Below, one piece after another: positions 2,070 to 4,828 of a stretch of 4,828 nt of DNA; within the stretch, counting starts at the first letter, position 1, and each line of letters begins with the position of its first letter. A program made the position numbers and the translations under genes. The notes under the pieces are model-generated. The model worked only from the letters and a program-made list of their open reading frames with translations, made no database searches and was not told where the DNA came from. Source of the stretch: a virus (lineage: Duplodnaviria > Heunggongvirae > Uroviricota > Caudoviricetes); the IMG/VR virus record IMGVR_UViG_2541047125_000007. One strand, written 5' to 3'.

Positions 2070-2383
2070 GTGGCTGGAAGAAGTGGCGCTGGGCTGAAAT
2101 CCTGATACTCCGGCAGTGTGCGGGAACGATGAGAGTCGAAAGCATCGGTTATCTGATTGGCCGTAGTGAGTCAGCCGTCAGGACGAAAGCGCGGGAACTG
2201 GGTATCAGCATGATGTTACGGGGTGATTATCACCAGTCAGCCAAATGTTCACAGCGTGATATTGAGCTGGCGTGGCAACTGCATCAGCGTGGTGTACCCC
2301 GACGGGAAATTGCCGAAAAGTTTGGGATGAAGTTGGGCGCAGTGAATAACTACGTTTATTTCGACAGGAGGGTTCAGGAGTGA
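2066..2383 (+). CDS. Small helix-turn-helix DNA-binding protein
   Basis: GTG at 2066 overlaps the upstream stop as GTGA (translational coupling); alternative start is ATG 2111. Stop is TGA at 2381-2383. [35 protein letters not shown] is a classic HTH of the resolvase or sigma region-4 type, and the N-terminal half ([10 protein letters not shown]...[24 protein letters not shown]) resembles a second DNA-binding motif. The upstream part of the track ORF (from 1979) lies inside the previous gene. Confidence 0.6.
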
Positions 2384-2682
2384 GGGTGAGGGTTTATATC
2401 GCCGGTCCGATGACGGGATATGAAAATTTTAACCGCGAGGCATTTCACAAAACGGAAGAGGTGCTGAAACGGGAAGGGCATACCGTTTTAAACCCGGCAG
2501 TACTTCCGGACGGGCTGACTCAGCCACACTACATGGATATTTGCATGGCAATGCTCCGTTGCGTGGATGCGGTTTACATGCTGAAAGGCTGGCAGCAGTC
2601 GGCAGGTGCAGGGGCTGAGCTGGCACTGGAGGAGAAACCGGGCCATGCGGTGATTTTTCAGGAGGTGGGCAGTGAATATTGA
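2380..2682 (+). CDS. DUF4406-like protein (nucleoside 2-deoxyribosyltransferase-like fold)
   Basis: GTG at 2380 overlaps the upstream stop (GTGA) with AGGAGG at 2366-2371; alternative GTG at 2386 has AGGAG 5 nt upstream. Stop is TGA at 2680-2682. The motifs VYIAGPMTG near the N-terminus and GW..SAGAGAE.A.A...G..V near the C-terminus fit this superfamily as I recall it. Confidence 0.7.
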   Translation: MRVRVYIAGPMTGYENFNREAFHKTEEVLKREGHTVLNPAVLPDGLTQPHYMDICMAMLRCVDAVYMLKGWQQSAGAGAELALEEKPGHAVIFQEVGSEY

Positions 2683-2989
2683 CCCGGCGATAACGATTGA
2701 TATGGCCCTGAACGCCGGCCTGGCACTTCTTGGTTATTTCTACATTATGTTCTGCAGCGGACGATGGCTGTCACTGTTGTTCATGAAAAAATGGAATAAA
2801 CGCCGTAAGCAGGAGCAACGCCAGAAGGCAATGGATGCATTTTTCGAAGCCTTCGGAATTGACGGCATGGAACCAGGGGATCCAGCTCGCGCAATCAGCA
2901 GAGGGGGTGTAGTAATCCTTGTATATCGGAGTGAAGAGAAAAATGACGATCACAAAACAACGTGTAGAAGAAATCATATCCCGCATTGA
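2672..2989 (+). CDS. Small membrane protein with one predicted TM helix and a basic juxtamembrane segment
   Basis: GTG at 2672 has AGGAGG 6 nt upstream and overlaps the previous gene by 11 nt; alternative start is ATG 2702. Stop is TGA at 2987-2989. The hydrophobic stretch ALNAGLALLGYFYIMFCSGRWLSLLFM is followed by KKWNKRRKQEQRQK. Confidence 0.55.
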   Translation: MNIDPAITIDMALNAGLALLGYFYIMFCSGRWLSLLFMKKWNKRRKQEQRQKAMDAFFEAFGIDGMEPGDPARAISRGGVVILVYRSEEKNDDHKTTCRRNHIPH

Positions 2990-3260
2990 AATGTATGGAC
3001 ATGGTGCAGGGTATATCGCAGACGAGGTTAATGATCTGGCTATACTGGCGCTGAATTTATCAAATATCGCGAACCTGAAGCGATACGAGCTTGATATGGG
3101 AGGTTGCGACTCGTGCGGTCAGGATTGTGGCGCTGATATGACTGAAGATCCTGATGGTGATTATGTCCTGTTTGATGACGTGGTTAAGTTGTTTGAATTT
3201 GATACAACCACTCAAAAGTTAGAAATCCCGGCAAAGGAGGCAGCCAGTGGGCAAGATTGA
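2943..3260 (+). CDS. Small strongly acidic protein with a Cys cluster (CDSCGQDCG)
   Basis: ATG at 2943 is preceded by GGAGTGAAGAG; the ORF track's 2919 start is a TTG in the same frame. Stop is TGA at 3258-3260. By manual count there are about 20 or more Asp/Glu against fewer than 10 Lys/Arg in about 105 aa. The start overlaps the 3' end of the membrane-protein gene by 47 nt, so the start is uncertain (alternative ATG 2991). Confidence 0.55.
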   Translation: MTITKQRVEEIISRIEMYGHGAGYIADEVNDLAILALNLSNIANLKRYELDMGGCDSCGQDCGADMTEDPDGDYVLFDDVVKLFEFDTTTQKLEIPAKEAASGQD

Positions 3261-3684
3261 CTATCAGGCACTGCGTGAGGCAGCACAAAACTATCAATCG
3301 ACGCTGGCGTGGTATCAGGCTACCCCGGACAGCCCAAATGCTGAACGGGATTGTGATGCGGCTCTTGCTGCGTTTAAGCGTCACATCCGTCATCGGGAAG
3401 CGGATATTATCGCTGATTTGCTGGATGGACTGGAAGAAGCAAAATCACAACTCAACGAGCAGCGTGAGTATTACGAAGGCGTTATCTCTGATGGGAGCAA
3501 GCGTATTGCTGAACTGGAAGCGCGGGAAGTTCAATTACCGACTCGCTACGACCTTCGATATGGACACCCGATAAATGCAGATGAGCGACATGTCATGATA
3601 CCTAAAGAAAATGGCAGTTGGCTTTACCTGATTGACCTAGAACACGCATTACGCGTCGCTGGCATTCGCATCAAAGGAGAGTGA
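3247..3684 (+). CDS. Hypothetical protein with an Ea22-like N-terminal motif and a coiled-coil-like middle region
   Basis: GTG at 3247 with SD AAGGAGG at 3232-3238; stop is TGA at 3682-3684. The N-terminus IDYQALREAAQNY resembles the conserved N-terminus I recall for ead/Ea22-like prophage proteins (low-confidence family call). The central EADIIADLLDGLEEAKSQLNEQREYYEG...AELEAREVQ is heptad-like. Confidence 0.6.
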   Translation: MGKIDYQALREAAQNYQSTLAWYQATPDSPNAERDCDAALAAFKRHIRHREADIIADLLDGLEEAKSQLNEQREYYEGVISDGSKRIAELEAREVQLPTRYDLRYGHPINADERHVMIPKENGSWLYLIDLEHALRVAGIRIKGE

Positions 3685-3879: not shown

Positions 3880-4437
3880 ATGACCACTATTACCAAAGAT
3901 CGACTGCTGACAATCCAGCATTGGCGCGAAACATACGGACCGGGTAGCAACGTTGTGCTTCCAGCAGAAGAAGCGGAAGAGCTGGCACGGATTGCGCTGG
4001 CATCACTGGCAGCAGTATCGGATGAACGAGCAGCCTATGAATTATTTATGGAGAAGCGTTTCGGAGAATCTGTAGATCGCCGCAGAGCAAAAAATGGCGA
4101 TAGAGAATACATGGCATGGGATATGGCGCTTGGCTGGATTATCTGGTGTCACCGCGCCGCCATGCTTCAGGCTGGAAACTTTCGGGAAAATAAGGGTTCG
4201 TCAACCAATAATTTTCGGATAATCTCGGAAACGTCAACCAACTCTCCGGCAATCCCTGATGAGGTGTTGTCCGCAATCCTGAAGGTCGCCAGGCTTCGTG
4301 CAGATTTCGATGCTTCTGAAGTGGACAGGCGAGGTATCGGTAGTTGTCTGGATGAGGCCGAGCAAGAACTTATCGTTACCATTAACGAATACGCCAGTCA
4401 GATCGCAGTAGAAGCGACACAGGGGGAGAACCAATGA
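3880..4437 (+). CDS. Hypothetical phage protein (185 aa)
   Basis: ATG at 3880 is 2 nt after the upstream stop, with a weak SD (AAGGTGA). Stop is TGA at 4435-4437. It is in the same orientation and tightly packed with its neighbours. I do not recognise the family with confidence. Confidence 0.65.
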   Translation: MTTITKDRLLTIQHWRETYGPGSNVVLPAEEAEELARIALASLAAVSDERAAYELFMEKRFGESVDRRRAKNGDREYMAWDMALGWIIWCHRAAMLQAGNFRENKGSSTNNFRIISETSTNSPAIPDEVLSAILKVARLRADFDASEVDRRGIGSCLDEAEQELIVTINEYASQIAVEATQGENQ

Positions 4438-4511
4438 GCCGGCCAGATGCATTTGCAGGCGTTGCTATAGCTATTGCTTTTCTAGTATATGTTATTTGTC
4501 GGTGGGGGTAA
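4434..4511 (+). CDS. Putative 25-aa hydrophobic micro-peptide (MSRPDAFAGVAIAIAFLVYVICRWG)
   Basis: ATG at 4434 overlaps the upstream stop as ATGA and has a strong SD (AGGGGGAG at 4421-4428). Stop is TAA at 4509-4511. It has a single TM-like hydrophobic core and falls below the ORF-track length cutoff. Confidence 0.35.
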   Translation: MSRPDAFAGVAIAIAFLVYVICRWG

Positions 4512-4546: not shown

Positions 4547-4651
4547 ATGTCGGATGATATTTCACTGGTAATGGAAGGCGCTCTGGCTGTTATTGCTGTT
4601 GTGGGTGTTTACTGCCTGGTTGTGTTTTTGATGGAGCGCCTGGGGAACTGA
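4547..4651 (+). CDS. Putative 34-aa hydrophobic micro-peptide (MSDDISLVMEGALAVIAVVGVYCLVVFLMERLGN)
   Basis: ATG at 4547 has a strong SD (AAGGGAGGG at 4535-4543, 3-4 nt spacing). Stop is TGA at 4649-4651. It has an acidic N-terminus and a TM-like core, and falls below the ORF-track length cutoff. Confidence 0.4.
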   Translation: MSDDISLVMEGALAVIAVVGVYCLVVFLMERLGN

Positions 4652-4677: not shown

Positions 4678-4828
4678 TCGGGCAAAACGGTTTGCTGTAA
4701 AGCGAGAGTTAAGTAGAATTGCTGCGGGTGCTTGAGGCTGTCTGCCTCGGGCATGCCACCGTAAGGTAGACAGAGAAAAGCCCCAGTTAACATTACGCGT
4801 CCTGCAAGACGCCTAACATTAATCTGAG

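Follow-up and report, generated by a model that had tools for sequence, protein, structure and literature searches.

This locus raises the question of why two neighbouring genes of a Caudoviricetes phage should share 47 nt of DNA. The initial annotation had described the first of them as encoding a single-pass membrane protein whose 3' end is overlapped by the gene for an acidic protein, and had offered coupled expression or a misplaced start or stop as ways to account for the overlap. We analysed the whole 4,828-nt stretch of DNA in which the two genes lie, referred to here as the window, and all positions are those of the window unless another source is named. The genes and signals on which the argument turns are the following.

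2661 to 2665, plus strand: GGAGG, the Shine-Dalgarno sequence of the DUF4752 gene as read from the sequence, 6 nt before its GTG.
2672 to 2989, plus strand: DUF4752-family gene, GTG start, 105 aa, TGA stop at 2987-2989; product identical to RefSeq WP_001017965.1.
2943 to 3260, plus strand: acidic-protein gene, 105 aa, net charge -14, phrog_3126, WP_000156547.1.
3247 to 3684, plus strand: Ead/Ea22-like gene, GTG start.

In our judgement the locus is very probably explained by a combination of four elements: a DUF4752 gene, an overlap created at a mosaic junction, a protein tail that is not under selection, and a product that acts as an N-out/C-in early accessory anchor.

We show that 2672-2989 is a bona fide gene and a member of the uncharacterised family DUF4752. 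Its product matches Pfam PF15944 (DUF4752) over the whole profile, with protein residues 7-90 aligned to positions 1-84 of 84 (E 7.5e-39; 132.1 bits, against a Pfam gathering threshold of 27), and this is its only Pfam match; residues 1-93 also match phrog_667 (E 4e-41). Among 13 distinct alleles, pN/pS is 0.30 in the gene's own frame versus 1.17 and 1.45 in the shifted frames, and residues 53-88 are the most constrained portion of the gene (pN/pS 0.16). On the strength of the Pfam and phrog_667 matches and the in-frame pN/pS, a chance open reading frame was rejected. The start codon, GTG or ATG, occupies one conserved position in all relatives and contexts; GTG starts are preceded by GGAGG or GAGAGG, and ATG is used elsewhere. 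In the window, the upstream DUF4406 gene (2380-2682) overlaps the DUF4752 gene by 11 nt, and its 3' end contains the GGAGG. Many E. coli O157:H7 chromosomes carry the 881 nt of 2380-3260 at 100% identity, and in them RefSeq/PGAP annotates the same two coding sequences of 318 nt each, WP_001017965.1 as 'DUF4752 family protein' and WP_000156547.1 as 'hypothetical protein'. The reading frame and its 47-nt overlap with the acidic-protein gene are thereby confirmed from both the sequence and the RefSeq annotation. The protein is already catalogued and annotated, its family has no assigned function, and as a finding it is ordinary. As a separate observation, the 5' end of the DUF4752 gene (2672-2690, and the same position in the related loci L002, L003 and L070) is also a mosaic junction, at which the first six or so codons follow the upstream module: MNIDPA behind DUF4406, MNINTT behind a TraR-like gene and MATDSQ in a third context.

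Members of the DUF4752 family are encoded in delayed-early operons of temperate enterobacterial phages and are typically 82-96 aa long. The family occurs in 140 phage records and in more than 1,200 complete E. coli genomes, Stx phages included, with about 290 junctions between a DUF4752 gene and the acidic gene available from complete E. coli genomes, and its carriers comprise Stx phages, the HK106/mEp lambdoids, the P22-like phages L, BTP1 and ST104, and phages of Klebsiella, Erwinia and Hafnia. The genes always lie in early-left (exo-xis) or nin regions and have no constant neighbour. A profile search of 1.84 billion representative proteins returned only 61 relatives, and a scan of genome contigs added only one 41%-identical Pseudocitrobacter copy and two tiny assembly contigs from Xanthomonas and Trinickia, which we took as contamination. 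Long repeat proteins that appeared in the profile search (P0067, P0106 and P0116) were dismissed as repeat-amplified chance matches. Compared with PF15944/PHROG 667 examples such as Stx2II_p077 of the Stx2 II phage, orf78 of VT2-Sakai, gp31 of HK106 and orf90 of phage L/ST64T, the window protein has the same full-length HMM match, the same architecture and the same early-left (exo-xis) or nin location; it differs in being 105 rather than 82-96 aa long, with an extra 14-residue tail read out of frame.

The locus is the early-right operon, with replication and nin-type genes, of a Rac-like lambdoid prophage. Its genes are packed head to tail with overlaps, in the order racR/ydaS-ydaT-like genes, a DnaT-like replication gene, a P-like replication gene, DUF1627, an HTH protein, DUF4406, DUF4752, the acidic protein, the Ead/Ea22-like gene, a 63-aa open reading frame, DUF551 and hokD/sok. 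The placement in an early phage operon proposed by the initial annotation is thus borne out, with the DUF4752 gene among replication and nin-type early genes. A consensus scan, which may miss weak or non-canonical promoters, found no sigma-70-like promoter on the plus strand between 1900 and 3800. In Stx phages, the DUF4752 gene lies between a gene for a TraR/DksA-like zinc-finger protein, described as Orf73 in the matched passages of PMC8614690, and an Ea22-like gene to which it is adjacent, whereas in the window it lies two genes upstream of the Ead/Ea22-like gene. It is absent from the five conserved exo-xis genes given in the matched passages of PMC8614690, which describe no membrane anchor either, and the matched passages of two exo-xis papers do not mention it.

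The protein itself can be divided into four parts.

2690 to 2782, plus strand: hydrophobic, predicted membrane-anchor helix, residues 7-37 (core 11-29), called from hydrophobicity, family conservation and AlphaFold2.
2783 to 2827, plus strand: poly-basic juxtamembrane stretch MKKWNKRRKQEQRQK, residues 38-52, with 8 K/R in 15 residues and net charge +7.
2828 to 2935, plus strand: conserved small C-terminal domain, residues 53-88, consisting of a helix AMDAFFEAFGI and then a beta-hairpin ISRGGVVILVYR.
2945 to 2989, plus strand: read-through tail, residues 92-105 DDHKTTCRRNHIPH and the TGA, an out-of-frame reading of acidic-gene codons 1-16.

On simple scales, the transmembrane call for this protein is marginal: the best 19-residue Kyte-Doolittle window, residues 11-29, scores 1.54, marginally under the classical cut-off of 1.6, and a simple Hessa-scale sum for the helix is about +2.3 kcal/mol. 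The hydrophobic segment is kept in 26 of 29 diverse family members (median Kyte-Doolittle 1.67), and a conserved R31-W32 lies at the predicted cytoplasmic interface of the anchor helix. AlphaFold2 models a continuous helix over residues 5-61 and strands at 72-77 and 80-85 (pLDDT 70.8, pTM 0.34). Based on hydrophobicity, charge distribution and the modelled helix, the product is probably a small, single-pass membrane protein, in keeping with the earlier description of one transmembrane helix followed by a poly-basic region, which the Kyte-Doolittle maximum, the AlphaFold2 helix and the density of basic residues all bear out. The N-terminal ten residues carry a net charge of -2, and across the family the flanks average about -1 on the N side and +4 on the C side. 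Since the C flank is poly-basic and the N flank negative, the positive-inside rule predicts an N-out/C-in topology, and we infer from it that at most about ten residues would be periplasmic while the poly-basic stretch and the conserved domain would be cytoplasmic. An alignment of 29 members displays a single plan: a hydrophobic N-terminus, a basic stretch, a 'QKAxNxFYDAFxL' helix and an 'xTTKGxLxIxxYR' hairpin, with a very short N-terminus before the hydrophobic helix and a very short C-terminus after the hairpin. The window protein shares this architecture with the family and departs from it only in length, at 105 aa against the usual 82-96, since 14 residues are read out of frame from the acidic gene.

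The origin of these residues becomes apparent at the end of the DUF4752 gene, where the overlap with the acidic-protein gene occupies 2943-2989.

2927 to 2946, plus strand: module junction CGGAGTGAAGAGAAAAATGA, encoding R-S-E-E-K-N, with a Shine-Dalgarno-like purine run and the ATG at 2943-2945.
2991 to 2993, plus strand: internal in-frame ATG, encoding Met17 of the acidic protein and separated by 1 nt from the preceding DUF4752 stop (TGAAATG).

In close, E. coli/Shigella-type DUF4752 loci, the junction CGGAGTGAAGAGAAAAATGA is near-identical, the DUF4752 frame has no stop before or within it, and divergence sets in right after its ATGA. The start codon of whichever gene comes next sits within this junction, at codons K90-N91-D/E92. 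We compared tail classes and junction DNA in 86 related loci; CGGAGTGAAGAGAAAAATGA is conserved among them and is followed by four different downstream sequences with four overlap lengths (14, 32, 47 and 89 nt), whose relative frequencies are biased because the loci were ranked by similarity to the query.

Downstream Ea22-like gene beginning MSKIDYQ or MSEINYQ: DUF4752 tail EQD or ERD, then stop; overlap 14 nt.
Downstream MSEINYQ variant with ATC instead of ATT: tail ERDQLSGTA, then stop; overlap 32 nt.
Downstream acidic gene (MTITKQRVE...): tail DDHKTT[CS]R[RK]NHI[PS][HP], then stop; overlap 47 nt.
Acidic-gene variant with TGA changed to TGG (loci L019-L021): tail with 14 further residues (119 aa); overlap 89 nt.

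DUF4752 homologues accordingly vary from 88 to 107 aa, and the differences begin exactly past '...VYRSEEKN'; more distant family members have a plain ATGA overlap or a gap at the gene end (L085, HK106, phage L). Break-points of megablast matches fall at the same place (query 557-567 of 2380-3260, corresponding to 2936-2946), and the Stx2 II record marks a boundary of a mosaic 'arrangement' at the DUF4752 gene end.

These observations show that the 47-nt overlap is a by-product of lambdoid mosaic module swapping at a shared junction and carries no special signal. In this E. coli clade, the DUF4752 gene reaches the junction ...GAA GAG AAA AAT GA... without a stop of its own, and because there is none before the junction, translation runs on, out of frame, into the next module until the first stop there. 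The arrangement resembles the ATGA-type mosaic junctions of lambdoid early operons in that the break-point coincides with a gene boundary and the upstream gene's last codons contain the start codon of the next gene, and the acidic gene also uses ATGA overlaps behind other genes. The DUF4752 frame differs from these by an offset of one base (AAA AAT GAC versus AAA TGA), so its stop is supplied by chance inside the next gene and the overlaps span 14-89 nt instead of 4. What could pass for an unusually long same-strand overlap or an annotation error therefore has an ordinary cause in lambdoid mosaicism, and neither gene call needs changing. The protein tails of two assemblies, P0017 and P0051 (...EKMTITKQRVEK...), would fit a junction A-run shortened by one base (AAAAA to AAAA), a change that would bring the DUF4752 protein into frame with the N-terminus of the acidic protein and yield a fusion. 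A programmed frameshift at the A-run was also considered as a hypothesis; the only A-run variants observed are these putative fusions, each from a single contig, and they may be assembly or sequencing errors or real homopolymer-length variants.

Downstream, the 3' end of the acidic gene extends 14 nt into the Ea22-like gene (3247-3260) and closes with codons CAA GAT TGA; in Stx phages of the VT2-Sakai type, it is the DUF4752 gene that closes with these CAA GAT TGA codons of the Ea22-like gene. This shared ending suggests that the acidic gene entered at AAAAATGA-type junctions, separating the DUF4752 gene from the Ea22-like gene. By the contexts in which it is found, the acidic gene is a separately mobile module. 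In a single observation of another kind, a Logan contig from SRR31943997 (L173, positions 3001-3315 of that contig; protein P0087) carries an Ead/Ea22-like N-terminus fused to a DUF4752 C-terminal domain and has no membrane helix; the fusion directly follows a DUF4406 gene, as the DUF4752 gene does in the window.

Several lines of evidence indicate that the tail is not a selected part of the DUF4752 protein. The tail lies outside the Pfam match, which ends at residue 90, and almost wholly outside the phrog_667 match, which ends at residue 93; the DDHKTTCRRNHIPH type is present only where the acidic gene comes next, and AlphaFold2 models the tail as disordered (pLDDT < 50). The acidic gene is also found behind unrelated genes ending in ...CAAAAATGA (in PhiR12_1, Sf101, IME10 and many viral contigs), which terminate as ...CAA AAA TGA on its ATG, and in three loci with unrelated upstream genes (L123, L110 and L113) the 47-nt stretch is identical to that of the window, which makes the tail sequence independent of the DUF4752 gene. 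Over the 42-nt overlap in 16 haplotypes from all contexts, pN/pS is 0.24 in the acidic-gene frame versus 1.40 in the tail frame, which leads us to reject dual coding under selection in both frames; among unlinked copies of the acidic gene the values are 0.14 versus 2.49. In DUF4752-linked copies, with three haplotypes only, the two frames are inseparable (0.58 versus 0.69), and weak, lineage-specific selection on the tail may operate there. The pN/pS of acidic-gene codons 17-96 was not used, as indels between variants invalidate an ungapped calculation. The TGA that closes the tail is preserved because it lies inside conserved I/H-E codons of the acidic protein; it is equally preserved where the tail frame is unused, and its loss in L019-L021 is tolerated. 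The initial annotation had reasoned that conservation of the downstream frame alone would mean that the tail is not coding. Across all contexts only that frame is indeed under purifying selection, which largely bears out the condition, yet the tail is most likely still translated. The tail is probably a translated but unselected appendage that forms no part of the family, and residues beyond about 91 of DUF4752 proteins can be ignored or trimmed in constructs.

The overlap would disappear altogether if the acidic gene really started at Met17 (2991), in which case the two genes would adjoin and the overlap would be an annotation artefact. Some older annotations do begin there, giving an 89-aa form (cluster member P0135), and the Shine-Dalgarno sequence before 2943 is only moderate, either a GGAG 11 nt upstream or a GAAGAG 4 nt upstream. 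Set against this, acidic-gene codons 1-16 (MTITKQRVEEIISRIE) stay conserved from one context to another, most changes in them being synonymous, as their pN/pS in unlinked copies and overall attests; the acidic protein matches the phrog_3126 profile over residues 1-105; and in other phages, PhiR12_1 and Sf101 included, the acidic gene follows other genes via an ATGA overlap at the ATG matching 2943, where it is preceded by a strong GGAGGTG. The same junction ATG also serves the Ea22-like genes. We consider a start at Met17 extremely improbable. The start and stop calls of both the DUF4752 and the acidic gene are correct, and the suggestion of a misplaced start or stop falls away given the conserved DUF4752 start codon and, for the ATG at 2943, the ATGA junctions and the conserved first 16 codons. 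This settles the start of the acidic gene at 2943, on which public records disagree (105-aa and 89-aa forms among others).

With both genes correctly delimited, the overlap could still be functional, having been selected for coupling or anti-coupling of the two genes or for re-initiation at Met17 (TGAAATG), which would yield a shorter acidic isoform. Ribosomes on the DUF4752 message must traverse the downstream ribosome-binding site and start, an in-frame ATG of the acidic gene follows the DUF4752 stop by 1 nt, and TGAAATG is retained in both main linked haplotypes. However, the I/H-E-M codons, and hence both the TGA and the ATG, are conserved without an upstream DUF4752 gene, and because Met17 is kept in such copies its position provides no evidence of re-initiation. 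The TGA is lost in L019-L021, the overlap is context-dependent in length, from 14 to 89 nt, and there is no structured RNA at the junction for a ribosome to melt, predicted structure being no stronger than background (z = +0.38). Termination-reinitiation is not indicated either, since the stop at 2987-2989 lies 44 nt beyond the ATG at 2943 and adjoins only the Met17 ATG, and this distance makes coupling at 2943 unlikely. We therefore regard a functional overlap as very unlikely, and the earlier proposal of coupled expression fails on the position of the stop, the lack of a standout RNA structure at the junction and the variable overlap length. A search in and adjoining the DUF4752 reading frame found no RNA family or repeat, and no promoter or terminator beyond shuffle expectation. 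Under the mosaic-junction explanation, the acidic gene would most likely be initiated independently at its own A-rich, unstructured start region, and ribosomes completing the DUF4752 gene would cross that start and may transiently occlude it.

What the DUF4752 protein does must be approached from its architecture and context. A literature search by family name found nothing on DUF4752, and searches with guessed O157 locus tags gave nothing relevant. No match was found in PADLOC (at E up to 0.1) or in NCBIfam, and Foldseek with the AlphaFold2 model against BFVD and PDB gave no match with E < 1. A PDB profile search retrieved designed consensus-TPR proteins only, through the basic/helix stretch; we treated these as spurious, no stretch passing alone. 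Membership of Hok/Gef-type or holin-type toxins is not indicated, DUF4752 being the sole Pfam match and the gene being placed in neither a hok/sok locus nor a lysis cassette; the hok/sok locus of this operon is separate, at the 3' end of the window. From its predicted topology, the protein would be a membrane anchor, keeping its small conserved domain at the cytoplasmic side of the inner membrane, and would be made only when the early operon is derepressed. Most likely it would serve early and in an accessory role, binding or sequestering a partner from host or phage at this membrane face.

A different possibility, raised by the initial annotation, is that the protein acts in superinfection exclusion or injection blocking, as an inner-membrane protein that interferes with the entry of incoming phage DNA. 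The protein is small, probably located in the inner membrane and encoded by temperate phages, and DUF4752 genes are both widely distributed and mobile across lambdoid, P22-like and Stx phages, a pattern often seen with accessory exclusion genes. Inner-membrane proteins are also found among the known injection blockers, P22 SieA and HK97 gp15 (the latter cited in PMC10883804). SieA, at 162-164 aa, has three predicted transmembrane segments and is expressed from the prophage (PMC10883804); the DUF4752 protein resembles it as a predicted phage-encoded inner-membrane protein of a temperate enterobacterial phage, but has one helix, is predicted to be mostly cytoplasmic, is encoded in a repressed early operon and has no sequence similarity to it. 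Moreover, the DUF4752 protein shows no homology to a described exclusion or defence protein in PADLOC, NCBIfam or structural searches, no more than about ten of its residues are predicted to be periplasmic, and its gene lies midway in an early operon under repressor control, where the consensus scan detected no separate promoter for it. For the membrane-stress role that the initial annotation also proposed, PADLOC, NCBIfam, structural and literature searches likewise gave no link. The minimal periplasmic exposure and the lack of an own promoter in that consensus scan argue mildly against an exclusion protein that is expressed in lysogens and faces the periplasm. We consider an exclusion function unlikely, and we infer that a lysogen-expressed blocker of DNA injection is less likely than an accessory binder at the cytoplasmic face. 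The protein could reasonably be included in a screen for toxicity or exclusion, though it is not a remarkable target.

Going further along the accessory-binder reading, it is tempting, though rather doubtful at present, to view DUF4752 proteins as unrecognised early effectors that tether a helix/beta-hairpin domain at the cytoplasmic face in order to capture a host or phage factor. Candidate partners could include the Ead/Ea22-type modulators of the lysis-lysogeny decision, whose genes are frequent neighbours and to whose N-terminus the domain is fused in the Logan contig L173. If this were true, the variable read-through tails would amount to noise that is tolerated on an anchor of functional importance.

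The 3' part of the window holds further small features. At 4726-4828 on the plus strand, Rfam identifies a sok antitoxin RNA (RF01794, 61.3 bits) that is truncated by the end of the window; it is part of the hokD-type toxin-antitoxin locus whose annotation in the O157 genome lies immediately beyond. A 34-aa open reading frame at 4547-4651, plus strand (MSDDISLVMEGALAVIAVVGVYCLVVFLMERLGN), has one strongly hydrophobic helix and a GGAGGG ahead of it, and is probably the counterpart of WP_001278450.1, a PGAP 'hypothetical protein' of 105 nt in the genome of strain TR01 (L001). A hydrophobicity scan also picked out an unannotated 25-aa hydrophobic mini-ORF at 4434-4511, plus strand (MSRPDAFAGVAIAIAFLVYVICRWG), which begins at an ATGA shared with the stop codon that closes the DUF551-like gene (3880-4437). 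That gene is 558 nt long in the window versus 588 nt in TR01 (L001 5501-6088), a length difference from which it follows that the window differs from TR01 by an indel outside the compared 881 nt.
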